IMG/VR virus record: IMGVR_UViG_3300042451_000642 | Reading direction: 5' to 3' (one strand) | DNA: 20,000 bases | Origin: an uncultured virus (IMG/VR IMGVR_UViG_3300042451_000642) | Lineage: Duplodnaviria; Heunggongvirae; Uroviricota; Caudoviricetes | Part shown: positions 470 to 20,000 of the stretch, piece after piece | Layout of the letters: each line of letters starts with the position of its first letter | How positions within the stretch are numbered: the stretch's first letter is position 1 | Translations under genes and position numbers: made by a program | The notes under the pieces: generated by a model | Database searches by the model: none | Told to the model about the DNA's origin: nothing | The model's input: only the letters and a program-made list of their open reading frames with translations

Positions 470-493
470 TTTCTTAAAAATAATAGTAATATT

Positions 494-525
494 TTTGGAT
501 ATTCAAAATATAATTCGTATATTTG
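494..525 (+). promoter_or_regulatory. Bacteroidota-type housekeeping promoter (-33 TTTG / -7 TAnnTTTG), probably giving a leaderless mRNA
   Basis: TTTG 494-497, 20-nt spacer, TATATTTG 518-525, ATG 4 nt downstream. Confidence 0.75.
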
Positions 526-529
526 TGGT

Positions 530-955: not shown

Positions 956-956
956 A

Positions 957-1403: not shown

Positions 1404-1420
1404 AATATAAAACAATTAAT

Positions 1421-1525
1421 ATGAACAAGTTAATAATTAAATTTAAAAAAATCCTACAAGAAATATTGTTGGGGTTTAAAATTGCTGAAGAGAATAAACA
1501 TAAATCCCAATGGGGTAAGTTTTAA
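1421..1525 (+). CDS. Small hypothetical protein (34 aa, not in ORF track)
   Basis: MNKLIIKFKKILQEILLGFKIAEENKHKSQWGKF*; fills the gap between neighbours and has an A-rich upstream region. Confidence 0.55.
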   Translation: MNKLIIKFKKILQEILLGFKIAEENKHKSQWGKF

Positions 1526-1538
1526 ATTAAAAAAATGT

Positions 1539-1880
1539 ATGCGAGAATTTAAATTTTTCAGAGGGTATGAAATAAACCCATTTGTTTTTGATGGAGAACA
1601 AATAAATAATAATTTAATACAACCATTAACATGGCCAGGAACAACCACTAATACACCAACATGGATTACTAATCCAGGTTATATTGTTCCACAACCATAT
1701 ACTATAACAACAACACCAGGTACTGGCACATATACGATTCCATTTAGCGGGACAATCAATACCGCAACAGGATTTAGTTTGACGACATCAAATCCAAATG
1801 GAACAACATATACCACAACCGGTATGGGTGGAACTTTAACAACATCGGCAAACACATTTTATAATCAAACGATTAAGTAA
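1539..1880 (+). CDS. Thr/Gly/Pro-rich low-complexity protein with FKFFRGY leader
   Basis: Start revised from 1482 to ATG 1539 (MREFKFFRGY), which matches the neighbours' leader and avoids overlap with the 1421-1525 ORF. Confidence 0.7.
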   Translation: MREFKFFRGYEINPFVFDGEQINNNLIQPLTWPGTTTNTPTWITNPGYIVPQPYTITTTPGTGTYTIPFSGTINTATGFSLTTSNPNGTTYTTTGMGGTLTTSANTFYNQTIK

Positions 1881-2317
1881 TGATTGAGTTCAAATTTTTA
1901 AGGGGTTATGTTGGAACATTAAATGTAATGGATGGAGAAACTTATGCCACCGCATCACTCAATGACGATACACCAGAAGGTCATATGAATAGAAGAATGT
2001 TATATCACACAAATCATAATCTTCTTGATAATGTTAGAAGGGAAATACCAAGAGGTCGGTTTGGCACGCCCGAGAGACATCAAGATATCCTAAGAAGATT
2101 ACAAATGACTAACGATTCAAGAGATTTAAATGATAACCCTATAAGATTATTCCAAACAACATCAGTAACAACAGTTAACCCGAAGTGGTGGATGAAGATA
2201 AAGATGTTTTTTCAAGAGGCTAATTTTAATGGTGAAATCTTAGGTATTATTTTTATTGCTGGTTCATTAACTATTGGTGTAATTCTCGGAATTGCTAAAT
2301 TATTAAATGCATGGTAA
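1880..2317 (+). CDS. Hypothetical protein with FKFLRGY leader and C-terminal TM helix
   Basis: 145 aa; TAATG stop/start overlap; hydrophobic C-terminus ILGIIFIAGSLTIGVILGIA. Confidence 0.8.
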   Translation: MIEFKFLRGYVGTLNVMDGETYATASLNDDTPEGHMNRRMLYHTNHNLLDNVRREIPRGRFGTPERHQDILRRLQMTNDSRDLNDNPIRLFQTTSVTTVNPKWWMKIKMFFQEANFNGEILGIIFIAGSLTIGVILGIAKLLNAW

Positions 2318-2535
2318 GCGAGTTTAAGTTCTTTCAGAAGAACAAGTATAAAGATAGATGTCGATTACAGATTGGTTCCTCATTTATTTTACGTGGATAT
2401 TATTGTACCGTAACAAGAATGTTTGCAAACCATTTTGAATATTGGGTACAAGAAACGGAATTTACCATTGCTATGAGTTATAAAGATTATCTAGCCACAC
2501 CATCGGCTGCAGGTAGACAATTAAATAGTATATGA
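2311..2535 (+). CDS. Hypothetical protein with FKFF leader
   Basis: 74 aa starting MVSEFKFFQK; overlaps both neighbours. Confidence 0.7.
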   Translation: MVSEFKFFQKNKYKDRCRLQIGSSFILRGYYCTVTRMFANHFEYWVQETEFTIAMSYKDYLATPSAAGRQLNSI

Positions 2536-3026
2536 TAAAACCTTTTAAACTACTTAAAGGATACACATATAGTGATGAGTATACATTACCAACACAACAA
2601 AATCCACCATTCAATTTATCACATCGTCATTGGAATTTGTTACCTCAAGATTTGAGAGGTGCGACATTACAAGAAATGGAATGTTATATTCGTGGATGGG
2701 AAGATGCTCGTAGTAATGTTGCTGTAAATCCATATATTGATAGAATAAGACGTAGTTTGTGGAATAGGGGGTTTCTAAGGTGGAGGGGTAGAGTAGGAAT
2801 GAATTATCGTAATGTAAATCCTAACCTACCAATAGACGAAAGTTACCCTGAATATTATAACACAGATGATTTTGTCTTCTCTGACGTGTCCTCAATTATG
2901 TTTGATCCAGTTAGTTCTCAACCATACAAACATATGATGTTTAGACATATTGAGGATGGAGATACGGTGGAAGGTAATAGAATATTTCCCGACCACCCAA
3001 TGTGGAACTTCCCTGATATAATATAA
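2532..3026 (+). CDS. Hypothetical protein with FKLLKGY leader
   Basis: 164 aa; ATGA overlap with the upstream stop. Confidence 0.75.
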   Translation: MIKPFKLLKGYTYSDEYTLPTQQNPPFNLSHRHWNLLPQDLRGATLQEMECYIRGWEDARSNVAVNPYIDRIRRSLWNRGFLRWRGRVGMNYRNVNPNLPIDESYPEYYNTDDFVFSDVSSIMFDPVSSQPYKHMMFRHIEDGDTVEGNRIFPDHPMWNFPDII

Positions 3027-7574: not shown

Positions 7575-8963
7575 ATGGGAAATAAATTAAAGGCAATACC
7601 AGGAACAAGATTCAATATAATAACCATCATAAAGGAAACCGAGGGTAAAAGATATAAGGATGGAACCCTTGCAAGGATGGTTACAATTCAATGTGATTGT
7701 GGTAACATAAGGGATAAGAATTTGGCACTTGTATTAAGAGGTGAGGTAAAGAGTTGTGGGTGTTTATCAGGTAAAGGTGATTTAACCAAAGATCAAGTAG
7801 GGAAGAAATATAATATGTTAACTATTACGGGGGAAGCACCTAAGAGACGTTCAAAAGGAGGTCATAGTCAAAGGTTCGTTAAGGTTAAGTGTGATTGTGG
7901 TAGTAAAGAGTACGAGGTCCAACTAAGTGCTATTGTCAGTGAAAATACAAAATCCTGTGGATGTTCCAAATTAAATGGTGGTATAAAAAATAAGATAGAT
8001 TATATAGGAAAGAGATATGGTAGATTAACTATTATAAAGGAATTACCTGGAGTAAGAAAACCTGGAGGATCCATTCAAAGAATTATGGAATGTAGATGTG
8101 ATTGTGGTGTAGTTAAACCACTAAGAATATCTGACATAAGAAGTGGAAGGACAACATCGTGCGGATGTTATATGAGACAGGTGTCAAGTGAATCAAATGC
8201 CATGAATGTGGAAATTGGTACAAAGAGAGGATTCATGACATTACTAAAAGAAACTGACAAGGTAACAAAATACAAGAAAGATGGTGGAATGTCAAGTAGT
8301 ATAAGGTATGTAATGGTTAAATGTGACTCTTGTGGTGATATTGAGGAGATGACCCTTCATAGGTTCATAACGGAATCACAACCAATCCATTGTGGATGTT
8401 TGACATCCAAAACAACCATGGGGAGATTAAATAGTAAAGAGATGATTATTGAGCGGTATAATAGTCTTGAGATTCTTAAGGAACTTGATGAGGTTGAATA
8501 TTATACACATGATGGGGTAATATATAAACAAAGGATGGTAGAATGTAGATGTGAATGTGGTAGTGTTGATTCTTACAAATATAAAGATTTATTATTAAGT
8601 AATATAAAGTCTTGTGGATGTAAGAGTCATTTTGATAGTCATGGGTTATGTAAGAATGAAAATACTCGACGAATGTATCAAAGATGGAAAAACATGTTGA
8701 GTAGATGTTATAATCAAAGAGATGTACATTATCATCATTATGGAGGTAGAGGAATTGGAGTATGTGAAAGATGGAGAGAGTCATGTGAGAACTGGATTGA
8801 GGATATGGGATTTCCACCTACATGGGAAGACACTAACGATAGAATCGATGTGAATGGTGACTATGGACCAGATAACTGTAGATGGGCAGACCATAAAACT
8901 CAGAGTATTAATAAGAGAAGTAGTAAGTGGTATAGGAATGGAGAAAAAAATCCCACCATATAA
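7575..8963 (+). CDS. Phage HNH-type (homing) endonuclease-like protein with five CxCG...CGC repeats
   Basis: Five GxxYxxLTI...CxCG...(S/H)CGC modules, then YGGRGIGVCERW...DMG...DRIDVNGDYGPDNCRWA. Confidence 0.8.
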   Translation: MGNKLKAIPGTRFNIITIIKETEGKRYKDGTLARMVTIQCDCGNIRDKNLALVLRGEVKSCGCLSGKGDLTKDQVGKKYNMLTITGEAPKRRSKGGHSQRFVKVKCDCGSKEYEVQLSAIVSENTKSCGCSKLNGGIKNKIDYIGKRYGRLTIIKELPGVRKPGGSIQRIMECRCDCGVVKPLRISDIRSGRTTSCGCYMRQVSSESNAMNVEIGTKRGFMTLLKETDKVTKYKKDGGMSSSIRYVMVKCDSCGDIEEMTLHRFITESQPIHCGCLTSKTTMGRLNSKEMIIERYNSLEILKELDEVEYYTHDGVIYKQRMVECRCECGSVDSYKYKDLLLSNIKSCGCKSHFDSHGLCKNENTRRMYQRWKNMLSRCYNQRDVHYHHYGGRGIGVCERWRESCENWIEDMGFPPTWEDTNDRIDVNGDYGPDNCRWADHKTQSINKRSSKWYRNGEKNPTI

Positions 8964-8972
8964 TCTTCACCT

Positions 8973-9024
8973 GTTCACGTTTACGTGAACGTTCACTGTC
9001 CGTGAACATAGGTATTTTGTGAAC
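8973..9024. repeat. Cluster of GTTCAC/GTGAAC inverted repeats
   Basis: GTTCACGT-TT-ACGTGAAC, GTTCAC-TGTCC-GTGAAC, and a further GTGAAC at 9019. Confidence 0.75.
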
Positions 9025-9096
9025 ACCTTTACTATCCTGAAGGGAGGAGACGAGAGTCTCCGACCGACAATTACACCCTATAAAATTACCCCTCAG

Positions 9097-9121
9097 AACC
9101 CCTCCATAGGGGTTTTATTTT
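9097..9121 (+). terminator. Possible intrinsic terminator for left-arm transcription
   Basis: AACCCC-TCCATA-GGGGTT followed by TTATTTT. Confidence 0.45.
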
Positions 9122-9242
9122 ACCCCGAATTTTTTCCTGTTTATACCACTAAAAACCCTACTTTTTCCTGTCTGTTTTATCGTGATCAATTAATATATCT
9201 AAAACTATCTTTTTCTATCCCATATTTGGGTTCTAGTATAAT

Positions 9243-9270
9243 TTATCCACAATTCCCCACTTTCTCCCAC
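9243..9270. promoter_or_regulatory. DnaA box overlapping an MraZ-like (GTGG-N6)x3 array
   Basis: TTATCCACA at 9243-9251; CCAC at 9247, 9257 and 9267 (10-nt period). Confidence 0.4.
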
Positions 9271-9453
9271 TTACTAGGAATGTTCACTGGGATTGACCCG
9301 TGAGCGAATCACAGACCATTTTATTTTTTCTACCAGAATATACCCCTAATATCATTATATTATTACGGTCGGACTCTTCGAGTCCTCCCTTCAGGATGTC
9401 ATACAACGTCTTAGTATAACCCTTTATATATTATATTAATCTGTCATACATTA

Positions 9454-9469
9454 GGTTCCACGTGGAACC
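9454..9469. promoter_or_regulatory. parS-like perfect 16-bp palindrome
   Basis: GGTTCCACGTGGAACC; the inner 14 bp match the parS-type TGTTCCACGTGGAACA. Confidence 0.55.
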
Positions 9470-9748
9470 CTGAAGGGGGACCGAAGGTCCCCCGTATAAT
9501 AGAATATTCGTAATACAGGATGAAGGGGACCGAAGGTCCCCGAGTATACTTATAATACTTTTATACGGTCCTGATGTGATACGTCTATAATCCCTGAACC
9601 GTAATACAAACATTACTGGGGAAACCCACCCATGGGAAATAGTTTGCCAAACAACATTAAGATTACTGGGGAGACCAATATTGTTTGGCAGATTATACGG
9701 GGACCTTCGGTCCCCTTCAGGAGAATCTCGGAATAATCCTATGGAAAT

Positions 9749-9780
9749 TAAAAAAACCCTTAGGGATTTTCCGAAGGGTT
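9749..9780 (-). terminator. Intrinsic terminator downstream of the 294-aa ORF
   Basis: On the - strand: AACCCTTCGG-AAAATC-CCTAAGGGTT followed by a T run. Confidence 0.6.
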
Positions 9781-9852
9781 CTTAGTATAGTACAATATAT
9801 GTCTTACAAGGAAAGGATGAAGGGGGACCGAAGGTCCCCCGTAAGTAATACG

Positions 9853-10737
9853 TTATATCCATTTATAAATAAAGTTGAACTTATCTAAATTACTTGAAAA
9901 ACGAACAGGAACTAAATCATTTGATTTAAGTATGTATTTTATTCTTTCTGTTAATAGTGTTTCTAATAGTTCTTTTTTAGGTACTGCATAATCTTCAGAA
10001 AGTTTTGGGTACTCTATATAGATTGGCATGAAATCGAAGTCTACTTCCCCAGTAATCTTGTTGTGGCTTCTTGCATCACATTTGAACTTAAGTTTAACAT
10101 TTTTGGGGAATTTATAATATACCTTGATTTGTTTTAATTCACCATCATCTCCCATACTCGTATTGATTTCATCTGGTATTGTAAAGGTTCCCTCCTCGAC
10201 GAAGTCAAGATGAACCTGAAGGTTATGTGGAGTATTCTTTTGGGATTGGAGTTGTCTCAGACCTCTATTAATTCTTTCCAAGGTGGTGTCGTCGAGTTCC
10301 ATTACAGATCTGAATCCCACGGGATCTTTAAGAAAAGTCATCAGAGTCTTTACTTTACGAACTTCTTTTGTCCATTGAAGTATCTCCACGGGTAATACAG
10401 TGTCCATTGCACTGTTTAAGTTAAATCCAATGAATTCATTCATTCCCCCAGTAAATAATAGGTCACTGATCCTCACCATGGTTTCACCCATCTCATTACC
10501 ATCTTTATCCATGTACTCGTCATACATGGGCTTGAACTTCTCCGCAATCTCGGTCATCAACTTGAATATTATATCTGGTTGGACCTGAGTCTCACGTATT
10601 ACGATGTTCAAGTAAGATCCAAATGTACCAAAAGTTTCAGGTAGTGTATAATAAATCTCACCGTTTATTGAGTTCAGCGGACCCCTCAGAGATTTTACGA
10701 ATCTCTCGAAATCTGATTTGTCTAAAATTTTTCCCAT
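9853..10737 (-). CDS. Hypothetical protein (294 aa)
   Basis: Long ORF with no recognised motif; TATATTTATA just upstream on the - strand. Confidence 0.85.
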   Translation of the reverse strand: MGKILDKSDFERFVKSLRGPLNSINGEIYYTLPETFGTFGSYLNIVIRETQVQPDIIFKLMTEIAEKFKPMYDEYMDKDGNEMGETMVRISDLLFTGGMNEFIGFNLNSAMDTVLPVEILQWTKEVRKVKTLMTFLKDPVGFRSVMELDDTTLERINRGLRQLQSQKNTPHNLQVHLDFVEEGTFTIPDEINTSMGDDGELKQIKVYYKFPKNVKLKFKCDARSHNKITGEVDFDFMPIYIEYPKLSEDYAVPKKELLETLLTERIKYILKSNDLVPVRFSSNLDKFNFIYKWI

Positions 10738-10749
10738 AGATATAAATAT

Positions 10750-10779
10750 AAAAAAAAAGGTTCCATTGTGGTGGAACCT
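10750..10779 (-). terminator. Intrinsic terminator after the AP2-like gene
   Basis: AGGTTCCA-CCACAA-TGGAACCT plus T8 on the - strand. Confidence 0.75.
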
Positions 10780-10805
10780 CTTAGTAATACATGTGTGTAA
10801 TAAGA

Positions 10806-10985
10806 CTATCGTCCCATTAACTCGTTACGGAACTGTACGGCCTTTCTCTTGCTTGAGAAATTCTTAGAGTACTTAGTACCATTAACACTTACACGTACAC
10901 GGTAAGATGAACCATCATGATAGATGTTGTCGGCAACAGGAACATATGTAGTAACTGTGGTGCGACGGGATGTTGTTTTTTTCAT
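10806..10985 (-). CDS. Stand-alone AP2/integrase-arm-like DNA-binding mini-protein (59 aa, not in ORF track)
   Basis: MKKTTSRRTTVTTYVPVADNIYHDGSSYRVRVSVNGTKYSKNFSSKRKAVQFRNELMGR*; basic; three-strand plus helix pattern; followed by its own terminator. Confidence 0.7.
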   Translation of the reverse strand: MKKTTSRRTTVTTYVPVADNIYHDGSSYRVRVSVNGTKYSKNFSSKRKAVQFRNELMGR

Positions 10986-11131
10986 TTGTGACTATTTTAA
11001 GTTTATATATAAAATATAACAAATAATATCCAAATAAAAAAATCCTGCCAAAAAATATTTTACCCCAGTAAACTTAGACCATCTTGCTGTTGGTCAGAGG
11101 TGAATTCCCCAGTAATGTTCCGAGTCCCTGA

Positions 11132-11272
11132 TCAGGTCCCACTGTTGAGATATCTATCTCCCCACTTCTTGGTCATATAGGCATCATACCTATGTACCTT
11201 GTTCGGGTTGAACAGGAATATCACGAAGTAGTAATCCCACTTCCACTCTAAATCTTTTAAAAACTTCTTCAT
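11132..11272 (-). CDS. Small aromatic-rich hypothetical protein (46 aa, not in ORF track)
   Basis: MKKFLKDLEWKWDYYFVIFLFNPNKVHRYDAYMTKKWGDRYLNSGT*. Confidence 0.6.
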   Translation of the reverse strand: MKKFLKDLEWKWDYYFVIFLFNPNKVHRYDAYMTKKWGDRYLNSGT

Positions 11273-11298
11273 ATGATGTTGTTTATTCCCCAGTAATG

Positions 11299-11499
11299 TT
11301 ATCCCATCTTCTCCTTCCTGAGGATGTCGGTCAGAAGATTTTTGTGATTTTGAACGATTACACCGTGCTGTTTCTTAAGAGCTTCCTCTAAGGACATTCG
11401 TTTGTGTGTAATCTTCCAATTGATTCTGTCGGTCGACTCCCATCGTTCCCAATGCTTACCACTAGGTGAGAGCTGAATTCTACTGTGAATCTTTTTCAT
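11299..11499 (-). CDS. Hypothetical protein (66 aa)
   Basis: Start revised to MKKIHSRIQ at 11499 because a promoter lies at 11523-11554. Confidence 0.65.
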   Translation of the reverse strand: MKKIHSRIQLSPSGKHWERWESTDRINWKITHKRMSLEEALKKQHGVIVQNHKNLLTDILRKEKMG

Positions 11500-11522
11500 T
11501 TGTTTTTTATTTGATAATTCCG

Positions 11523-11554
11523 CAAAGGTACGGTGTTTAAGGGTTAATACCAAA
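11523..11554 (-). promoter_or_regulatory. Bacteroidota-type promoter
   Basis: TTTG-N20-TACCTTTG on the - strand. Confidence 0.7.
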
Positions 11555-11557
11555 CCC

Positions 11558-12124
11558 TTAAACAAATTCTTCAGTTTTAATCATATTGAAATCAATTGAC
11601 TTCAGTTTGAATACTAAGTAGTCGATTGCTATTCCCACAATCTTTCCATTGTGCTTGGCTACAAGAAGTCGGTAGGAACCATCCCCATAACCTGAAGACG
11701 ATACTACCCCAGTATTATATGATCCCCACTGTTGGCTTGACAAGGTTAATCTACACATCTTCTCATACCACTTATCTCCCTCACCCTCACACGGTAACAT
11801 AAAGTCCATCTTAGGTGCTGTTATCTCGTCAGCAATGGAATCATTCCTATAGGACTCCATATCAAATATCCCACACTGACCTGAGTCAACACCGATATCT
11901 GCTGCGGTAACTGTTCTCCAAGACAAATCGTCCTCCACATAATCCTTGTGGACAGCAACAAGTGCTGCACATCTTGTACCCCAACCACCGGTCTCATCCG
12001 ATTTGAATGCTGTGGAGGAGTACTCACCAGGTAATACATCTGTCAACTTATGCTGACACCAGGTAGGGACAGTGTAACAAGGGTCCGATACCATAACTTC
12101 CGAGCCTAAATAAATTTTTTCCAT
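11558..12124 (-). CDS. DUF4241-like protein
   Basis: VSDPCY, IGVDSGQCGIFD, SSGYGDGSY...GKIVGIAIDY. Confidence 0.65.
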   Translation of the reverse strand: MEKIYLGSEVMVSDPCYTVPTWCQHKLTDVLPGEYSSTAFKSDETGGWGTRCAALVAVHKDYVEDDLSWRTVTAADIGVDSGQCGIFDMESYRNDSIADEITAPKMDFMLPCEGEGDKWYEKMCRLTLSSQQWGSYNTGVVSSSGYGDGSYRLLVAKHNGKIVGIAIDYLVFKLKSIDFNMIKTEEFV

Positions 12125-12125
12125 T

Positions 12126-12449
12126 TTAAATTACATTTATTGTGAATGATTCTGTTTCGATTTGTCTGTGTAAATAAACTAAGTGTTCCATTGTAAGGTC
12201 GTTATAACCTAAGTCGTGGTAACCATCTCCTGTAATACCTTTGGTGATTAACTGACCTGTGCTTCCACATATCCCTATAACAACTACTTTAACTTGGTAG
12301 TCGTCGTCGAAGTTTTGGGTAAACCACACTGAGAATGGATTGATTAATTCTAATTCAAATTCGTCCCCTCCGTTAAGTTTAACGGTTCTGTGGACAATAT
12401 CTCGGTGAATGGAATCACGGAGCTTTAGTAACTCTTGAGAGTAATTCAT
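12126..12449 (-). CDS. Hypothetical protein
   Basis: 107-aa ORF abutting the downstream gene. Confidence 0.75.
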   Translation of the reverse strand: MNYSQELLKLRDSIHRDIVHRTVKLNGGDEFELELINPFSVWFTQNFDDDYQVKVVVIGICGSTGQLITKGITGDGYHDLGYNDLTMEHLVYLHRQIETESFTINVI

Positions 12450-12473
12450 ATGATTAATAGTTTAAGTGTAATA

Positions 12474-12505
12474 CGAAATTAAGTATTCTTTTCGAATATT
12501 CCAAA
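12474..12505 (-). promoter_or_regulatory. Bacteroidota-type promoter (variant -7)
   Basis: TTTG-N20-TAATTTCG. Confidence 0.55.
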
Positions 12506-12988
12506 TTATGCTAGAATATTTTTTAGAACTTTAATATTCTCGTCAATCTCAAGGTCCATCACTTTAAGTAACTTCTCCTTGGCTAACTCCATAAACTCTA
12601 CACTGTTACCCAGTAAATCTATGTCCGTCCCGTGCACATCCGTCTTCCCGACGATAACCCTGATGTCCTTAGTACCTTTACCCTCTCTATAGAATAGAGC
12701 TCGAGCATAGATGTACTCACGAACCAAAGACAGTTTGATTTCATCTGCCACAGATTCCTTAGAACGGAGTTGCATAATGATTTCTTCTAACTTGGCTAAC
12801 ATCTCGAAGTTGGTCTTCATCATACGGATGCTGTTCTTATACTGATTACAGTACTTCACCAGCTCATCAGTGTGAGGAATACTTAAGTCGATGTCCACAT
12901 TAAGGAAACGATCGTATGAACTAATTCTATCTCGGGTACCCACTATCTCAGTGAATACTCCTCCCGTTAAACGATTTTCTCTACCCAT
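12506..12988 (-). CDS. Hypothetical protein
   Basis: 160-aa ORF. Confidence 0.8.
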   Translation of the reverse strand: MGRENRLTGGVFTEIVGTRDRISSYDRFLNVDIDLSIPHTDELVKYCNQYKNSIRMMKTNFEMLAKLEEIIMQLRSKESVADEIKLSLVREYIYARALFYREGKGTKDIRVIVGKTDVHGTDIDLLGNSVEFMELAKEKLLKVMDLEIDENIKVLKNILA

Positions 12989-13188
12989 TTTATTTTTGTT
13001 TTTAATTTGTTTAAAATCCCAGTAAACTTGTCCCCATCCTGGCTCACCTCAGGTGCGAACTCATATCTCGTGTTCATTGTACCCCCCAAATAACCAGTAA
13101 AGTATTTGGTTGGTTCAACATATTGACTCGATACTCTATATCTTTCCACCCACTCATTAAATGATAATGGGGTTTGGAATGTGCTCAT
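12967..13188 (-). CDS. Hypothetical protein
   Basis: Probable start MSTFQT at 13188, directly after the upstream stop. Confidence 0.65.
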   Translation of the reverse strand: MSTFQTPLSFNEWVERYRVSSQYVEPTKYFTGYLGGTMNTRYEFAPEVSQDGDKFTGILNKLKTKIKWVEKIV

Positions 13189-13189
13189 C

Positions 13190-13825
13190 TTACATTTCAG
13201 TTTCTTTTCCATATATCTCTTTTAATTCGTTAAAAATTTCTTCTAATTTTTTAAGGTCTTCGTCCCCAGTAATAAAATGGAACATTTCCTTCACCGACTC
13301 GAAGGTTACATCTTCATCACTCTCGAACAAATAGTCAATGTCCCCGTCGATAGATTCAAAGAAGTTCTCCTTGTCGAAAAGATATCTACCCTCATTGTAT
13401 GAATAATCTTCTTCGGTTAATCCATTCTCATTGTCAAAATAAGATTTACCACAGAAGTCACAACCTGGTTCTTCATAATATAACTCACACTTCACATTGA
13501 ATAACCTACCCAAGTGTTGAATGAAGTTTATTGGTGGTGACCAAGCTGAATCGAACGACATTGTTATTGATTCGTCATCATAAGTGATATTAGCTTCGTT
13601 GTATGACACATCCCACTTACAACCCCAGTAATTAATGTTGGCATCGTACCATCCTCCGTGTTCGTATTCATTTAACTCAATAGATTTGTCACGACCAACA
13701 AGAGCCATAAAAATACCAGGGGATGTGTTATCCTTACTCTCGATATCTTCGAGATAAAATTTAATTCTGTCCAAGTTTTCGTTATCACCTGTAATAGTAA
13801 GGTGATTGTTGCACCAATTTGGCAT
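13190..13825 (-). CDS. YubB/DUF1281-like ferredoxin-fold phage/plasmid protein
   Basis: MPNWCNNHLTITG, WYDANINYWGCKWD, FDSAWSPP, YEEPGCDFCG. Confidence 0.8.
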   Translation of the reverse strand: MPNWCNNHLTITGDNENLDRIKFYLEDIESKDNTSPGIFMALVGRDKSIELNEYEHGGWYDANINYWGCKWDVSYNEANITYDDESITMSFDSAWSPPINFIQHLGRLFNVKCELYYEEPGCDFCGKSYFDNENGLTEEDYSYNEGRYLFDKENFFESIDGDIDYLFESDEDVTFESVKEMFHFITGDEDLKKLEEIFNELKEIYGKETEM

Positions 13826-13846
13826 AGTTGTATGATTTATGTTTAA

Positions 13847-13878
13847 CAAAGATATAACAGGGATATCATTATTCCAAA
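13847..13878 (-). promoter_or_regulatory. Bacteroidota-type promoter
   Basis: TTTG-N20-TATCTTTG. Confidence 0.75.
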
Positions 13879-13899
13879 TAATATCCCCGTTATTTTATT

Positions 13900-14382
13900 T
13901 TACCAAGAAGCTCTGTATTCAAAGTCACCAGAGTACAATCCGTGTTCTTTGGATTGTTCGTGTTCTTCTAACAACTCCTCAATGATTTTGATAGTTGAGT
14001 TTACATCTTCTTTGTAATACTCATCAATTTCATCACCACCGAAAAAGAAACCCTGTACTGGTGGAAGAAGTTCTTTAGCCTTATCAAAGTTGGAACTAAC
14101 TTCTTTTAGTGTTTCAAATAACTCTTTCAGCTTGTCCTCATCAACATTGATGTTTTGACATTCATCAATACCACCACCACAATTCTCAACGAACCATCCG
14201 TGAAGTGCATTGAACTTTCTCCAATACGCCACCTGTTCGGTGATGTAACAAATACGATTTGGTTTAATGTCGTTACGAACTACACCATTCTTTTTAACTT
14301 CGATTTGGTGTTGTTGTTCAGGTGGGTTGTGTTCCCAATTTTGTACATAAGTTCTTTTGTACAGATACATGTCTAGTCCCAT
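13900..14382 (-). CDS. Conserved phage protein of unknown function (MGLDMY...YWRKxN family)
   Basis: MGLDMYL, VAYWRKFNALHGWF, LLP..GFFFG, YRASW. Confidence 0.8.
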   Translation of the reverse strand: MGLDMYLYKRTYVQNWEHNPPEQQHQIEVKKNGVVRNDIKPNRICYITEQVAYWRKFNALHGWFVENCGGGIDECQNINVDEDKLKELFETLKEVSSNFDKAKELLPPVQGFFFGGDEIDEYYKEDVNSTIKIIEELLEEHEQSKEHGLYSGDFEYRASW

Positions 14383-14413
14383 GATTTTTTAGTTTAAGTG
14401 TTAATTAATAATG

Positions 14414-14445
14414 TAAAGGTATTACAATAATTTTATTATACCAAA
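14414..14445 (-). promoter_or_regulatory. Bacteroidota-type promoter (variant -7)
   Basis: TTTG-N20-TACCTTTA. Confidence 0.55.
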
Positions 14446-14817
14446 TTATTTTATGAAAAGTTTACTATCGATTGTAAATAATTCTTTGTACTCACTTCCG
14501 TCAGCATTCTGTCCGTTTAAATTCCAGAATGGCAACACTCTTGGATTGTATTTTAAATGTGCGGTAGTTTCAGGAATAAAATCTTCGGTAAGAATTTCTA
14601 TTTCTTTACAAAGAACATAAGCACAAACGACTTTGGTGGTTTCCCCAGTAAATATTTTCTGCGCTGCTGTCCTGTTGTTTTTCAGAACGCAATCAGTTAG
14701 TATTAACTGAACTTCAGCTGGGTGATAATATTTCACCCAGCCGTTGTTATATTCAATTTTCCATTTCATATAGTTCTCTCCCTTTCCGAGATTGAACCTA
14801 ACTTTATGCTTTTTCAA
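14446..14817 (-). CDS. Hypothetical protein
   Basis: Likely TTG start near 14817 (KKHKVRFNLGKGENYMKWKI); the longer ORF-track start would overlap the upstream gene by about 200 nt. Confidence 0.65.
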   Translation of the reverse strand: MKKHKVRFNLGKGENYMKWKIEYNNGWVKYYHPAEVQLILTDCVLKNNRTAAQKIFTGETTKVVCAYVLCKEIEILTEDFIPETTAHLKYNPRVLPFWNLNGQNADGSEYKELFTIDSKLFIK

Positions 14818-15256
14818 CTTCTTCCTTTTTATATTTTTTAACAAATTGGGATGGAGTACCACGAAACAATTCAGTTTTATTTCCGTCGTTCTCATAACAA
14901 ACAAACTCAATGGAGTAATCTTCTTTAACGATAACATCATAAAGATAATCTTCCCAAGAATTTCCACGACTTGACAAAGATTGTACATAGGTGTTTCCTG
15001 TTTCGCCACCTTTTAATTTCCAAATGAGTTGAGCAGCTAAGCAACCAGCGCCGTTGAATACTAATTTCTTTTCATTAGCACCATACCCATTAACGACTTT
15101 TCCTGTTGATAACCATTCAGCGGTTTCAAGTGGATGACCTGTTGGGTATCCGTCGTACTGACGATAGATTAAACAGATTTCATTCTGTTTTACTTTTTTT
15201 ACTTTTTTACCTGTTGAGTATTCCTCAATGATGCGGTAAGTTGAACGAGTTCCCAT
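14804..15256 (-). CDS. Conserved phage protein (MGTRS...YDGYP family)
   Basis: MGTRST, IYRQYDGYP, FNGAGCLAAQL, EDYLY; start revised to 15256, downstream of the promoter. Confidence 0.8.
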   Translation of the reverse strand: MGTRSTYRIIEEYSTGKKVKKVKQNEICLIYRQYDGYPTGHPLETAEWLSTGKVVNGYGANEKKLVFNGAGCLAAQLIWKLKGGETGNTYVQSLSSRGNSWEDYLYDVIVKEDYSIEFVCYENDGNKTELFRGTPSQFVKKYKKEEVEKA

Positions 15257-15289
15257 AATAAATTTTTTTTTGTGATTAATATTATGATA

Positions 15290-15320
15290 CAAAGATAATA
15301 CTTTTTTATTACCTGCCAAA
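15290..15320 (-). promoter_or_regulatory. Bacteroidota-type promoter
   Basis: TTTG-N19-TATCTTTG with AT-rich upstream tract. Confidence 0.75.
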
Positions 15321-15350
15321 TTTATTTTCAACTTTTTTAAAAAAATATTT

Positions 15351-15490
15351 GCCGGCGTCATGCATAATCCTAAACATTACTGGGGTGTAATACGGATCTG
15401 ATCGGCGCACGATCTGCAAAACTGGCTAAACATTACTGGGATGTACCCCAGTAAACTTTCGCCTCAGGCCTGTGCAGATACAGTGCACAG
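15351..15490. repeat. TTACTGGG cassette 1
   Basis: TTACTGGG at 15377 and 15433, CCCAGTAA at 15447; GC-rich palindromic spacers. Confidence 0.85.
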
Positions 15491-15491
15491 C

Positions 15492-15519
15492 AAAAAAAAT
15501 CCCCACCTTTCGGTGAGGA
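15492..15519 (-). terminator. Intrinsic terminator
   Basis: TCCTCACC-GAAA-GGTGGGGA plus T8. Confidence 0.85.
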
Positions 15520-15526
15520 CATTAAA

Positions 15527-16285
15527 TTAAAGTTGTATGACAAACTTATTCTTTGTTAACTTATTTCGAACTCGTTTATATTTTAGTCCGACAATTACAT
15601 TCTTTTTATCTTTATACCTCATATCGTATAAATCCCCATCGATTACTTTCCTATCCCAAAATGTTTTAGGTACTTTATTAAAAACAACCGCCACCCTTAC
15701 ATTCTTATTTAACATTGAGTGACACTCATTTAAATTGTGACCGCTATAAGAGAAAGTTAAATCGTAGTTCTTATATTTTTTAAGTAGTTCGATTCTTTTA
15801 GGAACCTTCGTATAATCGTAGAATTGAATATGTTGAAAGTATTGTAAAATATTAACGGGTTTATCATTTACATGAAGATAAAACGATTCGGGTGTTATAT
15901 CTGATGTGTTATTCAAACGAACTGAAAATTTATAACCTAACTTCTTAGCCTTCAATTCAGTTGCTTTAATTTCATCGAATAACCAACTGACAAAAAATTC
16001 TCTGTGTTCAAAAAACAATTTAGTTTTTGCAATTCGTGAACGATTAATTTTATCGTCCTCCATGTTCATCGTGTTCATCCCTGATTCATTCAAACATAAC
16101 TTTGTACATTCTTTTGTTCTCATAGGGCAAACCTCGTAACCGCTCATTTTTGCAGGAGCTAAGTACAAACTATATGTTAATTCATCGTACTTGAATGCCT
16201 TCTGATGTTTGGTTGTCATATTAACGGAGCCTAAATAAGATATCCCTGTTAATCTTTTTGCTTGAGCTTTAGTAGTGTAAATCAT
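15527..16285 (-). CDS. GP88-like (gene product 88) phage protein with CxxxxxxCxxxC cluster
   Basis: LYLAPA..SGYEVCP....CTKLCL, VRLNNTSDI, QFYDYTK, YDLTFSYS, IDGDLYDMR; start revised to 16285. Confidence 0.75.
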   Translation of the reverse strand: MIYTTKAQAKRLTGISYLGSVNMTTKHQKAFKYDELTYSLYLAPAKMSGYEVCPMRTKECTKLCLNESGMNTMNMEDDKINRSRIAKTKLFFEHREFFVSWLFDEIKATELKAKKLGYKFSVRLNNTSDITPESFYLHVNDKPVNILQYFQHIQFYDYTKVPKRIELLKKYKNYDLTFSYSGHNLNECHSMLNKNVRVAVVFNKVPKTFWDRKVIDGDLYDMRYKDKKNVIVGLKYKRVRNKLTKNKFVIQL

Positions 16286-16306
16286 TTGTTTATTTTTTAG
16301 TGTACA

Positions 16307-16338
16307 CAAATATACAACTAATACTTTTATATTCCAAA
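16307..16338 (-). promoter_or_regulatory. Bacteroidota-type promoter
   Basis: TTTG-N20-TATATTTG. Confidence 0.75.
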
Positions 16339-16360
16339 TTTATTTTTAAATATTTTTTTG

Positions 16361-16508
16361 AGTCAGCGCATGCGCGCAGCACTGGCCTAACTTTACTGGG
16401 GTAATACGACACAGATTTTGCATGCAGATTACAGGTGAATAATTACTGGGATGTACCCCAGTAAACTTGTGCGCTGGTCCGAGCTGCGTTTGCGCTGAGG
16501 GTAATACG
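16361..16508. repeat. TTACTGGG cassette 2
   Basis: TTACTGGG at 16393 and 16443, CCCAGTAA at 16457; core ATTACTGGGATGTACCCCAGTAAACTT identical to cassette 1. Confidence 0.85.
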
Positions 16509-16509
16509 C

Positions 16510-16539
16510 AAAAAAAAGGGTGAACATTTCTGTCCACCC
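16510..16539 (-). terminator. Intrinsic terminator
   Basis: GGGTGGACA-GAAA-TGTTCACCC plus T8. Confidence 0.85.
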
Positions 16540-16560
16540 AATCGTTCACACTAATAAACA

Positions 16561-16875
16561 CTAATCACTAATTCGTTTTTCTGTTCTAATACACTCAGCT
16601 TCCCACTGCTCACATAGAAGTAATACATCTTCCAACACATTCTCATTCAACTCCCAATAACTTTCTTCGTAGGTGTCGATAGCGTCAGAACTACTTGAAC
16701 GAGGTTCGTACACATTTACTTCGATATAATCTTCTGTGAAATATTCACCCAACCCAACATAGTTACCTAGTGTACCAACGAGAATACTATTCTCACCTTC
16801 TAATTCTCCAATACTAAAACATCCGTTGACTTTTAGTATGTCTGTAATACGATTAATGATTTCTGAATTTTCCAT
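16561..16875 (-). CDS. Acidic hypothetical protein
   Basis: 104-aa ORF. Confidence 0.75.
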   Translation of the reverse strand: MENSEIINRITDILKVNGCFSIGELEGENSILVGTLGNYVGLGEYFTEDYIEVNVYEPRSSSSDAIDTYEESYWELNENVLEDVLLLCEQWEAECIRTEKRISD

Positions 16876-16877
16876 TT

Positions 16878-17150
16878 TTAAATTGATTTAGTATTATCCC
16901 AAATTATATTACCTTCCTCGTCATACAACTCCTCCGTAGGTTCTCCACCATTTTCGTCAGGCATTATACGCTCAAGAGTTTCGTCAATATGTTCCCACGG
17001 CAGTTCAGTGGTTCCCATTTCTAAATGAAATCCAATTGCTAATTGTTTAGCCTCCTCCATTGAGTTAGCCTCGATTTCAAATTCGGTACGATACCAGGTC
17101 GTAACCTTTGTGTCCAAATGAAAGTTAAATGTTGTTAGGGTCTGTTCCAT
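16878..17150 (-). CDS. Acidic hypothetical protein
   Basis: 90-aa ORF with EFEIEANSMEEAKQLA, a pattern common in small phage proteins. Confidence 0.75.
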   Translation of the reverse strand: MEQTLTTFNFHLDTKVTTWYRTEFEIEANSMEEAKQLAIGFHLEMGTTELPWEHIDETLERIMPDENGGEPTEELYDEEGNIIWDNTKSI

Positions 17151-17250
17151 TTTCTATTGATTTTTTAATTGATATAATAAGTAATACAACCATTACCGAA
17201 AACAATACAATAACTCCGAATCCTAAAAGTAGACAATATAAGACATTCAT
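17125..17250 (-). CDS. Single-pass membrane micro-protein (41 aa, not in ORF track)
   Basis: MNVLYCLLLGFGVIVLFSVMVVLLIISIKKSIENGTDPNNI*. Confidence 0.55.
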   Translation of the reverse strand: MNVLYCLLLGFGVIVLFSVMVVLLIISIKKSIENGTDPNNI

Positions 17251-17261
17251 AGTTTTAATTT

Positions 17262-17459
17262 TTAAAGTTCACGAATATACATATAATCTTCTAATTCTTC
17301 CAAAGGAATTCTTCCGTTATTAGAACTATAATATCCTTGTCTTCGATATCGTTCTTTCCACTTGTCAAATGCCTCAAATGCTTTTTCCTTTGATGTGTAA
17401 TAAGGTCTATCGAATTCAATCGTAAACCCGTCGGGGGATAATACTTCGTACTTTGTCAT
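17262..17459 (-). CDS. Hypothetical protein
   Basis: 65-aa ORF; ATGA overlap with the upstream gene. Confidence 0.75.
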   Translation of the reverse strand: MTKYEVLSPDGFTIEFDRPYYTSKEKAFEAFDKWKERYRRQGYYSSNNGRIPLEELEDYMYIREL

Positions 17460-17806
17460 AGTCCTGCATTTTTAATGATACAATCTAATTTATATTCAAA
17501 TTCTTCCCTCATACCTTCAATGTCATATACCTTTCTATTTTCATCCACTTCATTATCTTCATTAATGTAAGGATGATAAAAAGCAACATCCACTTCAATT
17601 ACATTCGGTTTAAATTCCTTAACCATACTAATTGAATATTCGTGTTTAATTAAGGTATCTTGGTGTTGTGAACCACTATACCTATTTTGTCTATGTTGTT
17701 CCACAACTTGGTGTGAACCCATAGGTTTCCAACCATTTTTAATTAGGTTGTTAATTTTCTCCGTCAATCCTTCGGGGGATGAACTTGTTAATACTTTGTA
17801 CTCCAT
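17456..17806 (-). CDS. DUF1737-like N-terminal domain protein
   Basis: MEYKVLTSSSPEGLTEKINNLIKNGWKPMGS...YSISMVK; start revised to 17806. Confidence 0.65.
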   Translation of the reverse strand: MEYKVLTSSSPEGLTEKINNLIKNGWKPMGSHQVVEQHRQNRYSGSQHQDTLIKHEYSISMVKEFKPNVIEVDVAFYHPYINEDNEVDENRKVYDIEGMREEFEYKLDCIIKNAGL

Positions 17807-17828
17807 AATATTTTTGTTTAGTGTAAGA

Positions 17829-17860
17829 CAAAGATAAAACAATAATATTATTTTACCAAA
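17829..17860 (-). promoter_or_regulatory. Bacteroidota-type promoter
   Basis: TTTG-N20-TATCTTTG. Confidence 0.75.
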
Positions 17861-17881
17861 TTTATTTTGAAGAATTTTTTT

Positions 17882-18070
17882 TCAGCCCGATCATCCTAAA
17901 CATTACTGGGTTGAATTGTTAGCCAGCGCAAATTTCCTGATCAGCGCGCGCAAATCTGGCTAATGTTTACTGGGGTGTCCCAGTAATAATCACTTGCGCA
18001 CAATGCCTGGTCCATGAGTTATTTGTAATACCCCAGTAAACTTCATGATCAGCGCACAGTGTGACGGGTT
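17882..18070. repeat. TTACTGGG cassette 3
   Basis: TTACTGGG at 17903 and 17967, CCCAGTAA at 17979 and 18032. Confidence 0.85.
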
Positions 18071-18079
18071 CTTCTAAAC

Positions 18080-18111
18080 AAAAAACCCCCGAACCAAAAG
18101 TCCGAGGGTTT
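18080..18111 (-). terminator. Intrinsic terminator
   Basis: AACCCTCGGAC-TTTTG-GTTCGGGGGTT plus T run. Confidence 0.8.
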
Positions 18112-18137
18112 CACCAATCTAATCTTTAACCTTTGTC

Positions 18138-18416
18138 TTATCTTAGTCTTTCATCAACAACTAAGTTATAATATCCGTTTAAGAAATTAATTATTTCTGT
18201 AATACTTTCTTTTGACACTTTATGTTCTAATAACAATGATTCGATAAATCGTTTATTATCCGTCAAACCTAAACAATAAATAAAACCATTATCATCGTTT
18301 TTAGTATTAAAAAAAGTAAAATCAATTTCAATCGGTTTTAATTTAATTCTTACTTTCTGATAATTCTCAGAATCAATTTTCAAAGTTTTAGTTTTAATAA
18401 CTTTACTTGTGTCCAT
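18138..18416 (-). CDS. Hypothetical protein (very AT-rich)
   Basis: 92-aa ORF between the DUF932 gene and a terminator. Confidence 0.65.
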   Translation of the reverse strand: MDTSKVIKTKTLKIDSENYQKVRIKLKPIEIDFTFFNTKNDDNGFIYCLGLTDNKRFIESLLLEHKVSKESITEIINFLNGYYNLVVDERLR

Positions 18417-18443
18417 ACTTTTATTTTTTTAATTATTAATGTC

Positions 18444-19304
18444 TTACACTAAATGTACAAGTTCCTTAAAGATTTGTCTCTCACGATTTCCGTAAGTTCC
18501 GAACATCTTATTTTCAGAATTGTCACCTTTACCCATACTATGAGTTGTGTATTTTGTTACACCACTAAATAAACCCCAAATGTTATCACCCTTTTCGTTA
18601 ATCTCACCATTAAGGTCGACATAGAATCTACTTAATTTGTTTCGTGTTACGATATGTAACGAATCAACATCCTTAATATCAACATTCTTTTCGATATTGA
18701 ATAATGATTTGATTACTCTATCCTTGATAATATCATCGAAACGAGTTTCACTCATTTTAACGATAGAACCGAACACATTCTTTTCTTCTTGTACTACACC
18801 CTCAATTTGTCGACAGATATCTTCTATCTTTAATTCCATATTCTTTGTATGACGTACCTTTGAATCTAAATCCTTGTACACACCAAAGAATGTGTTTTGA
18901 CAACTGATAGTTTTAGAACTAGGTCCGAACGATAATGAAGTCGAACCATCAAAAGAATTAATCCCAGTAACATAACCCTCGATTCTATCCGTCCCCAAGG
19001 TTAAGTCGTTTGATTTTAATTGAACGAATACTTTTCGTCCACCACCGAACAAACCACCTCTGTGAACATCAAGTCCAGTTTGTTGTGATACTTTGAATAA
19101 TAGTTCCATCATTTGGTCATTCTGATATGGTACATAACCATTCGAGTGAATACCCAAGATTGTACTATCATCCTCACGAACGATACCAATTTTATCAGGG
19201 ATAATAATTCCTGACGAAGTTTGAAGTCCTTCGGTACGGACTTTCCAATTTAAACCAGTTCTATCCAAGAACTGATTAACCCGATTGTTTTCTACGATTT
19301 CCAT
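18444..19304 (-). CDS. DUF932/DUF945 phage/plasmid-like protein (TIGR03299-like)
   Basis: GLNWKV, VREDDSTILG...YVPYQN, GGLFGGGRKVFV, NSFDGS, SCQNT, RHT, WGLFSGVTKYTTH. Confidence 0.85.
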   Translation of the reverse strand: MEIVENNRVNQFLDRTGLNWKVRTEGLQTSSGIIIPDKIGIVREDDSTILGIHSNGYVPYQNDQMMELLFKVSQQTGLDVHRGGLFGGGRKVFVQLKSNDLTLGTDRIEGYVTGINSFDGSTSLSFGPSSKTISCQNTFFGVYKDLDSKVRHTKNMELKIEDICRQIEGVVQEEKNVFGSIVKMSETRFDDIIKDRVIKSLFNIEKNVDIKDVDSLHIVTRNKLSRFYVDLNGEINEKGDNIWGLFSGVTKYTTHSMGKGDNSENKMFGTYGNRERQIFKELVHLV

Positions 19305-19341
19305 CTGTTTAATTTTTATGGTTTAATAAATGATTGTATGA

Positions 19342-19373
19342 CAAAGATAAATCAATTTGGCATATAATCCAAA
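19342..19373 (-). promoter_or_regulatory. Bacteroidota-type promoter
   Basis: TTTG-N20-TATCTTTG. Confidence 0.75.
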
Positions 19374-19404
19374 TTTATTTTTAAGAAATATTAATTAATT
19401 TTTT

Positions 19405-19500
19405 CTCCTGATCCACCTGTGATCAGAGCTCCCAATATTACTGGGTAATACTTGATGATACCCCAGTAATTTTATGGGATGATCAGGGACGAGAAATCTG
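19405..19500. repeat. TTACTGGG cassette 4
   Basis: TTACTGGG at 19438, CCCAGTAA at 19462; flanked by TGATCA twice and GAGCTC. Confidence 0.8.
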
Positions 19501-19507
19501 TGGACAT

Positions 19508-19535
19508 AAAAAAACCCCCGACAGAATCGGAGGTC
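19508..19535 (-). terminator. Intrinsic terminator
   Basis: ACCTCCGA-TTCTG-TCGGGGGT plus T run. Confidence 0.8.
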
Positions 19536-19554
19536 TTTAATATAATAAGGGATT

Positions 19555-19878
19555 TTACTCCCCTAATAAATTTAGTACAAGGTGTTCGGAAGTTTCCTCC
19601 TCCCACACATCATCATTCCAATCCTCACCGACTTGTGTACAAGTCTTGTAGTCAAGGTAGACAATACCCATTTTAATTGTGACAATTCCTTCGGTTCTTT
19701 CGTTGATGGGAACCAACTCTTTTTCCACAAGGAATAAAAGTACGGTTTCGTAGACAAAAAATTGGTCGGTATTTTCCGACTCAACATATTCAACTTGACC
19801 TTGGAAGTCAAGGGAGAATTCGAATTCCATGTCAGAACTCAAAATCTTTTTAATCTCGGATAAGTATGTAGTATCCAT
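19555..19878 (-). CDS. Acidic hypothetical protein
   Basis: 107-aa ORF between a promoter and a terminator. Confidence 0.75.
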   Translation of the reverse strand: MDTTYLSEIKKILSSDMEFEFSLDFQGQVEYVESENTDQFFVYETVLLFLVEKELVPINERTEGIVTIKMGIVYLDYKTCTQVGEDWNDDVWEEETSEHLVLNLLGE

Positions 19879-19909
19879 AGTGTGTAGGTCTATTGGTTAG
19901 TAGACAATA

Positions 19910-19940
19910 CAAATATAAAAAAGAAATTCCGTTTTACAAT
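19910..19940 (-). promoter_or_regulatory. Bacteroidota-type promoter (imperfect -33)
   Basis: ATTG-N19-TATATTTG. Confidence 0.6.
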
Positions 19941-19969
19941 ACATTTATGAAAAATTATTTTACTTTTTT

Positions 19970-20000
19970 TCTGACCCTGGTAATCCAAATATATTACTGG
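19970..20000. repeat. Start of a probable fifth TTACTGGG cassette (truncated by window end)
   Basis: TTACTGG at 19994-20000, in the same position relative to a promoter as in cassettes 1-4. Confidence 0.6.

Follow-up and report, generated by a model that had tools for sequence, protein, structure and literature searches.

The window, by which we mean the whole stretch of DNA analysed (20,000 nt), has a non-coding gap of 890 bp between an HNH endonuclease gene and the gene of a 294-aa protein, and this gap contains six hairpins. The hairpins are real: the full grammar, TGAA-GG(stem)CC-G, is matched six times in 8960-9900 as compared with no match in 500 dinucleotide shuffles, and the 11-mer at the hairpin centre occurs four times where 0.08 occurrences are expected. 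All six lie where a sequence-only reading of this DNA had placed them, at 9036-9066 (+), 9395-9366 (-), 9471-9494 (+), 9521-9542 (+), 9719-9698 (-) and 9818-9841 (+), but they are not dispersed, as it had described them: the cluster spans 806 bp, and there are no further copies in the 54.8-kb contig. Copies are found on both strands of the locus. The TGAAGGG flank proposed in that reading is correct for the unpaired TGAA, while the G's are in fact the first pairs of the stem, and the 3′ flank is a single G. Four copies that had been taken as identical do share the GAA-loop form, though not their full sequence, two of them having 8-bp stems. The two other copies, hairpins 1 and 2, had been called variants with paired stems; the stems are paired, but the hairpins are longer and extend to a GG-GA/GA-CC base with a tandem mismatch, so that the stem foot is the same in all six. 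Five of the six have a C-GNA-G triloop. As also claimed, a poly-T tail is absent: no T run follows any of the six on either strand, and none of them qualifies as an intrinsic terminator. To the left of hairpin 1 there are repeated GTTCAC/GTGAAC arms (window 8973-9025; 2472 in locus L001 and 2458 in L007), which in L001 and L007 form an extra GAA-loop hairpin without the TGAA flank.

The genes that flank the locus are convergent in 23 of the 27 loci in which both were called. The slot to the left of the cluster often holds different nucleases (HNH types, a Cas12f/TnpB-like protein, a treble-clef zinc-finger protein), examples being L001 1084-2451, L004 1927-2481, L039, L059 and L086. Farther left, at 134-3026, five unrelated small genes of the window share an FKF(F/L) motif within their first ten residues, and similar starts occur in the related phage record G004. 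On the right, we considered the 294-aa protein as a universal partner of the hairpins and rejected it, because it is absent in G004; its Atlas leads are either unnamed or DUF2303 only. The 59-aa protein beyond it is also encoded at hairpin-less loci. No Pfam or PHROG family matches it at cut-off, and Foldseek returned nothing at E ≤ 0.001 (best Z 5.2); its structure model, three strands and a helix with a pLDDT of 83.5, weakly resembles AP2 and integrase arm-binding domains, which is a lead only. It may be regarded as a candidate reader of the block words described below. When the 59-aa protein was used as an independent query, 51 loci were recovered, 33 of them distinct. The hairpin elements lie downstream of its gene in 20 of the 33 (with at least two elements in 18) and upstream in none, and canonical hairpins are missing from the other 13, most of which retain the core.

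Table 1. Features of the hairpin locus and its surroundings, in window coordinates.
Feature	Position	Strand	Description
HNH endonuclease	7575..8963	+	phrog_374; variable gene slot left of the cluster
Hairpin 1	9036..9066	+	CC-TGAA, GG, tandem GA/GA, 6-bp stem, GAGA loop, G; some 250 bp to the left of the core
Predicted intrinsic terminator, left-hand genes	9093..9121	+	GC hairpin and T run, RNA fold -11.7 kcal/mol; not in every relative
Conserved core region	9160..9345		TTRTCG word (9177-9187), purine/pyrimidine tract, core word, AT-rich tract
DnaA-box-like 9-mer	9243..9251	+	single; not conserved family-wide
Core word GGGATTGACCC (11 bp)	9289..9299	+	inverted copy at the far block end in G003, G004, G008, G010
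Early-type gene block	9289..20000	-	runs past the window end; small genes, Bacteroidota-type promoters, specific octamer, roughly doubled contig depth
Hairpin 2	9366..9395	-	tandem GA/GA type, GAA loop; inverted partner of hairpin 1 around the core
Two TGTCATACA words	9397-9405, 9442-9450	+	word enriched within the early block
Perfect 16-bp palindrome	9454..9469		found in some relatives
Hairpin 3	9469..9494	+	CC-TGAA, 8-bp stem, GAA loop, G
Hairpin 4	9518..9542	+	GGA-TGAA, 7-bp stem, GAA loop, G
Early-block word TTACTGGG, first two copies (9613, 9663); inverted TGCCAAACA pair (9645, 9690)	9613..9690		
Hairpin 5	9698..9721	-	CC-TGAA, 7-bp stem, GAA loop, G; missing from some close strains
Predicted intrinsic terminator, early block	9747..9783	-	RNA fold -13.7 kcal/mol; sequence recurs in 9 viral contigs
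Hairpin 6	9815..9841	+	GGA-TGAA, 8-bp stem, GAA loop, G
294-aa protein	9853..10737	-	no assigned function; missing from G004
59-aa protein	10806..10985	-	conserved, basic; near the downstream end of the early block

Besides the hairpins, the locus has a conserved core (Table 1), which is present in 24 of the 29 loci tested, including seven without a canonical hairpin. Hairpins 1 and 2, inverted with respect to each other, flank a stretch of 330 bp; relative to GGGATTGACCC they lie near -250 and +100 in most loci, and in most full-length homologous loci the counterpart of hairpin 1 lies at -208 to -351 from the core. The core is thus the wider and probably the older signal, and the hairpins are optional, presumably an accessory layer in part of the family. 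Twelve of the 13 hairpin-less loci were inspected; L379 and L401, which are among these, carry GA-type hairpins with different flanks. These two loci belong to divergent clades, and their hairpins lie 3′ of the 59-aa gene and have GA/GA mismatches and GNA or GNNA loops, but different stem feet as well as flanks, which may reflect an altered reader. A DnaA box as a conserved feature of the locus was rejected, there being only one box and that one not kept across the family. The purine/pyrimidine tract of the core (window 9252-9270 and its homologues) varies among relatives between a C-rich and a G-rich form, as though it had been flipped in place.

Homologous loci were collected by pattern scans of viral and metagenome contigs. 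They lie in AT-rich contigs, and their source contigs, where placeable, are those of large phages. A metagenome pattern that fixed only the flanks gave at least 119 matches, of which the 74 with less than 45% GC were analysed and the 45 GC-rich ones were kept as background; in two other pattern scans the grammar was lacking from about two thirds of 38 matches and, among the matches listed, from 72 of 80. Although the pattern left the interiors free, 85 of 88 of them among the matches listed (18 of 21 distinct) are fully Watson-Crick paired, compared with 3 of 45 in the GC-rich background, and the remaining three consist of one with a G-T pair, one with a bulge and one unpaired. The conserved pairing and compensatory stem changes seen by the sequence-only reading are thereby borne out. 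In 13 copies of equal length, 21 cells were changed on both sides of the stem and none on one side only, but the test is biased, as the copies had been picked for pairing. A 5′ flank of TGAA or CGAA is found in 52 of 61 distinct GC-rich hairpins within -400/+700 of the core, a count that is partly selected, the loci having been found by their hairpins; the other nine flanks comprise five that are the same elements read from the opposite strand, three TGCA and one further variant. All 55 of 55 contexts have a G as the base 3′ of the hairpin, and the stem begins with GG/CC pairs in 51 of 52. Among 52 distinct members there are 23 C-GNA-G triloops, 23 GNNA tetraloops (14 of them non-GNRA) and 6 other loops, with 46 of the 52 being of the G..A type. 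Stems of 7-11 bp or with branched tops, and both triloops and tetraloops, stand on one common flank, which means that the distance from loop to flank varies.

The copy number is 1-6 per locus. Copies decay, entire stem interiors are exchanged between close strains, and a few loops of the family appear inverted; clean excision or target duplication at the hairpins was not seen in the comparison of close strains. In G000, G002, G003 and G004 the element is found at one locus per genome. In sum, these hairpins make up a strand-specific family whose structure is conserved; its members cluster around the conserved core, where a block of early-type genes has its downstream edge. Cultured phages gave no genuine DNA match to the locus; Flavobacterium phage immuto 2-6A had 10 pattern matches, as did the control, and none was a hairpin. 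One exact pattern was run against 185,579 prokaryote genomes and matched once, at a 52% GC locus without the grammar that appears unrelated. A literature search of partial coverage, in which the motif itself is not searchable, yielded no published description of the hairpin element, and the accessible parts of PMC12484599 and PMC7162821 do not describe it. The family is apparently undescribed so far.

DNA hairpins gain stability from loops of the cGNAg and cGNNAg types and from tandem GA pairs, and on the opposite strand GA/GA turns into TC/TC; the element therefore suits one DNA strand. The GNA and non-GNRA GNNA loops, the GA mismatches and the rarity of G-T pairs all point to a role as single-stranded DNA, and make a role as RNA appear less likely. 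Template-switch correction can give covarying palindromes without selection, but the mismatches and flanks that were retained would argue for selection over this process. The suggestion that these are structured DNA recognition sites accordingly looks sound, with covariation, strand-specific GA mismatches and DNA-type loops in its favour.

The gene set of G004 (324 kb, 97% complete) includes a T4-like portal, terminase, capsid and sheath, gp32, RecA, DnaB, PolB and a sigma-70 factor, as well as a weak match to DnaG and a NusG-family protein. The closest cultured terminases, with the query taken from G001, are about 28% identical and belong to Microcystis phage Mel-JY01 and Flavobacterium phage immuto. 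The promoters follow the pattern TTTG..TAnnTTTG, which we take to be the Bacteroidota consensus, and this pattern suggests Bacteroidota as the host phylum. Judged by its sequence, the phage appears to be a T4-like huge phage of Bacteroidota with a genome above 300 kb. The DNA of the window is present in lake and freshwater metagenomes; no RNA dataset was listed as containing it, which carries no information about expression, and run X24 had only a diverged relative.

The hairpin locus lies where a block of 15-20 kb ends on its downstream side, and the dense host-type promoters of the block are aimed at the locus. The block has a word of its own: 63 of 64 copies of the octamer TTACTGGG are inside the block in G003 (60.4-79.4 kb), 36 of 36 in G000 and 27 of 28 in G002, beginning at the cluster, and G004 has a variant, TTACTGGA, with 45 of 48 copies inside its block (156-174 kb). 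G006, which is more distant, is laid out in the same way, with TTCTGTGG as its block word and a single hairpin 0.9 kb inside the block. In the window (9613-20000) and in the blocks of G003 and G004 the octamers are often inverted pairs located 50-200 bp upstream of early promoters. The GC skew flips at the locus, but since it tracks the gene strand along G002-G004 this is not a replichore switch; the skew at four-fold sites likewise has no switch at the locus and gives no replication signal. The block also differs in short palindromes: G004 has 14 GATC sites in the 305 kb outside the block and 29 inside (155.8-174.4 kb), and GCGC is about 10-fold denser within the block of G000, G002 and G003, in intergenic clusters (window 15395-15411, 16366-16492 and 17889-18052). 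The GATC and GCGC copies are possibly decoy or methylase sites; there was no sign that restriction sites are more strongly avoided inside the block.

The far end of the block has a counterpart of the core. An inverted twin of the core word lies 18-19 kb away in G003, G004 and G008 and 15.3 kb away in G010, which has a third copy as well, and G001 has the word once forward and once reverse. The twin was not found in G009 or G012, only the far copy is found in G011 (by the exact pattern), and G006 and G007 have no match to the core word; 3 of the 10 matches of the far-end search were unrelated. Beside the inverted core word the far block end (L229/L231 at about 900-1100; G003 at about 79.4-79.6 kb) has a conserved cluster of G/C tracts, a GC hairpin with a T run, and A-tracts.

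Contig depth changes at the same place. In all three lake DNA runs contig depth, which is a sum over organisms and not a copy number, climbs across 9.07-9.75 kb and then stays high. The median depths on the left are 11.2, 33.9 and 6.2, and the first six bins on the right are 2.13, 2.52 and 1.99 times higher, respectively, though the three runs are possibly from one campaign and depth covers the inner boundary only. Single contigs with 0-8 differences have the same step, from 8.5-12.6 to 23-28 in X4, from 19.5-37.3 to 78-89 in X7 and from 4.4-8.2 to 11.3-12 in X8; relative to the best-covered bin on the left, however, the right side of X8 is only 1.37 times deeper. The left end of the window is 99% identical in G002 and yet stays at low depth, which speaks against simple sharing between strains. 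Contig ends are not concentrated around the core. We consider it probable, from the depth step and the word pair, that the early block is a long direct terminal repeat and that the core word and its inverted twin mark the boundaries at which genome ends form. Against a terminal repeat, the far twin is missing or ill-fitting in G009, G012 and G011, and IMG/VR lists these records as being without end repeats. Against fixed ends, the terminase is T4-like, and T4 packs headfuls.

The closest parallel in position is T5. According to the accessible text of 10.1101/866236, the non-coding region at the inner boundary of the long terminal repeat of T5 is rich in repeats and palindromes and extends 270 bp beyond the boundary. 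As far as that text and the available part of PMC10644984 describe it, repeat region 3 with the injection-stop signal (iss) of T5 and BF23, whose repeat is about 10 kb, resembles our locus in being a palindrome-rich non-coding region of about 1 kb at the inner edge of small, first-expressed genes. Both are also conserved while the neighbouring genes vary, and both have HNH genes nearby. In contrast to T5 and BF23, there is no array of eight DnaA boxes here but a family of GA-capped single-stranded DNA hairpins on both strands, in a phage above 300 kb with T4-like myovirus genes and Bacteroidota-type promoters, whose terminal repeat is a putative one. The repeats of SPO1 and 0305phi8-36, which carry host-takeover modules, are similar in their small, separately promoted genes and in needing a step of their own to be made from concatemers (PMC2147016, in its accessible portion); that portion mentions no such hairpin family, and the block here is bracketed by an inverted 11-bp word.

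Most likely, the hairpins serve in forming or delivering genome ends and are neither promoters nor RNA. Our specific proposal, which we put forward tentatively as something that could well be wrong, is that they are accessory single-stranded DNA landing sites used when the terminal repeat is duplicated or processed, in a position like that of repeat region 3 of T5. Concatemers would hold a single copy of the repeat, and a separate duplication would therefore be required, which could take place at the boundary by nicking and strand-displacement synthesis; synthesis of the terminal repeat as a separate step during packaging is argued in the available part of PMC2147016. Strand displacement would expose single strands at the boundary, on which the hairpins could fold, with sheared G-A pairs at loop, stem and base adding stability. 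A folded hairpin would then offer TGAA and the GG/CC stem foot to a phage protein, such as a primase-helicase loader, a gp32-type SSB complex or a partner of the terminase, and so prime, pause or protect the displaced strand. G004 encodes a primase, DnaB, gp32 and a terminase, in line with such a role, and a function as primase sites is possible. The 13 of 33 related loci without canonical hairpins, and the decay of single copies in close strains, speak against an essential role.

Several other explanations must be weighed against these landing sites, some of which share the location. The early block could enter the cell first, with transfer halting at the structured region until an early protein restarts it, as in T5. 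The position equals that of repeat region 3 and the iss, where a block of small, host-takeover-type genes has its inner edge, the early genes and promoters are aimed at the locus, the block has its own word usage, and the window has one DnaA-like box. However, a T5-like iss keeps eight ordered DnaA boxes where we find a single unconserved one, DNA leaving the capsid is double-stranded whereas the hairpins fit single strands, and the block shows no stronger avoidance of restriction-type palindromes, GATC and GCGC even being enriched in it. Such a stop is therefore unlikely; according to the accessible text of PMC10644984, experimental studies of the injection-stop sites of T5 are themselves lacking. 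At a general origin of replication, the core would be unwound, and hairpins 1 and 2, being inverted, would recruit primase or helicase to either strand to set up divergent forks. An origin would agree with the single locus, the AT-rich core, the repeated 9-mers, the inverted pair around the core in most hairpin-bearing loci, and a phage that has a primase and DnaB; plasmid ssi sites are a model for such loading by hairpins, and initiation could raise the depth. But the skew tracks gene strand without a switch at four-fold sites, the genes converge on the site, the depth has a step and a plateau and no peak, and an origin does not account for the inverted twin at the other end of the block, which makes this reading improbable. 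The hairpins could also be non-essential and amplified locally by duplication, template switching or gene conversion in a tolerant gap; they would have no dedicated reader and do no more than slow down exonucleases close to a genome end. The absence of canonical hairpins from 13 of 33 loci, the variable copy number, the decay and interior swaps between close strains and the few loops that look inverted would all fit. We nevertheless give this only a small chance: the TGAA/CGAA flank and the 3′ G are kept as described above, the GA/GA mismatches are retained rather than corrected, the positions near -250 and +100 are held across divergent phages, other spacers of the block have not been invaded, and excision or target duplication was not seen.

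The remaining alternatives had in part been raised by the sequence-only reading. As RNA, the hairpins could be factor-dependent terminators, 3′-end stabilisers or a ncRNA for two convergent units; the neighbouring genes do converge in most loci, G004 has a NusG-family protein, and tandem GA pairs are stable in RNA too. Ordinary terminators, however, are predicted for both units and leave four hairpins between them, outside both transcripts, with hairpin 6 on the untranscribed strand, although a crude scan finds terminators in only about half of 16 loci. Both strands are used, 14 of 23 tetraloops are non-GNRA, and a single G-T pair occurs among 88 interiors. An Rfam scan of the locus gave matches at chance level only (the best at 22.3 bits against a gathering cut-off of 85), and a tRNA/tmRNA search found none; a multi-hairpin ncRNA, as had been suggested, or any other RNA-level role is very unlikely. 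The promoter-terminator repeats inside the early block do fit the PeSL cassettes of T4-type phages (PMC2839356, in its accessible text), but the six hairpins have no T tail, lie outside the cassette array and are unpaired with promoters. A site for a phage RNA polymerase had also been proposed. The promoters of the N4 virion enzyme share with our elements the C-GNA-G DNA hairpin, the sheared G-A pair and the tolerance of changes in the inner stem pairs, as far as the accessible part of PMC4496689 describes them, and the same part places the centre of the N4 loop at -11, at a fixed distance from the start site. Here, by contrast, conservation is at the stem foot and not on the loop side, stems of 7-11 bp or with branched tops make the distance from loop to flank variable, the neighbouring genes point into the locus with no gene start downstream, and no element lies upstream of the 59-aa gene in 33 loci. 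The early genes have host-type promoters, G004 has a sigma factor, and no RNA polymerase was found among 207 of the 211 ORFs of G004 of at least 170 aa (the largest ORF having 1939 aa). The PF00562 profile of multisubunit RNA polymerases matched in none of four records with a positive control, while the control of a PF00940 search was silent. This reading is largely refuted, and hairpin promoters of the N4 type are extremely unlikely. REP/RAYT elements and the ends of IS200/IS605 have a tetranucleotide and an imperfect single-stranded DNA hairpin. Our elements are similar in the tetranucleotide at the 5′ foot (TGAA), in the strand-specific hairpin and in the GA/GA mismatch that is kept, but they are confined to one locus per genome and not dispersed, and the Y1/HUH transposase profile PF01797 matched in none of four phage records (its control being positive in 6 of 14), so the proposal of an HUH/RAYT site is not supported as regards a phage-encoded enzyme.

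Returning to the landing sites and the terminal repeat, the locus bears on two open questions, namely how phages such as T5 and SPO1 duplicate their long terminal repeats and what role the palindromes in the T5 iss play. Natural variation over dozens of phages separates the letters that matter (TGAA, the stem foot and the G-A pairs) from those that are free, and also the universal core from the optional hairpins. For a common clade of uncultured lake phages that is listed as being without end repeats, the locus predicts the genome ends to within a few hundred bases. It is conceivable, although we would sooner doubt it, that a large clade of 300-kb Bacteroidota phages, whose head, portal and terminase are of the T4 type, has fixed ends and terminal repeats of 15-20 kb, with the ends set by one inverted 11-bp word, and in addition a dedicated phage factor that reads a single-stranded DNA code (TGAA and a G-A-capped GG/CC foot, whatever the loop and the length of the stem) so as to duplicate the repeat or gate a two-step injection. 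If a dedicated reader of this kind does exist, the hairpins would provide a sequence handle on the copying of terminal repeats and on injection stops.
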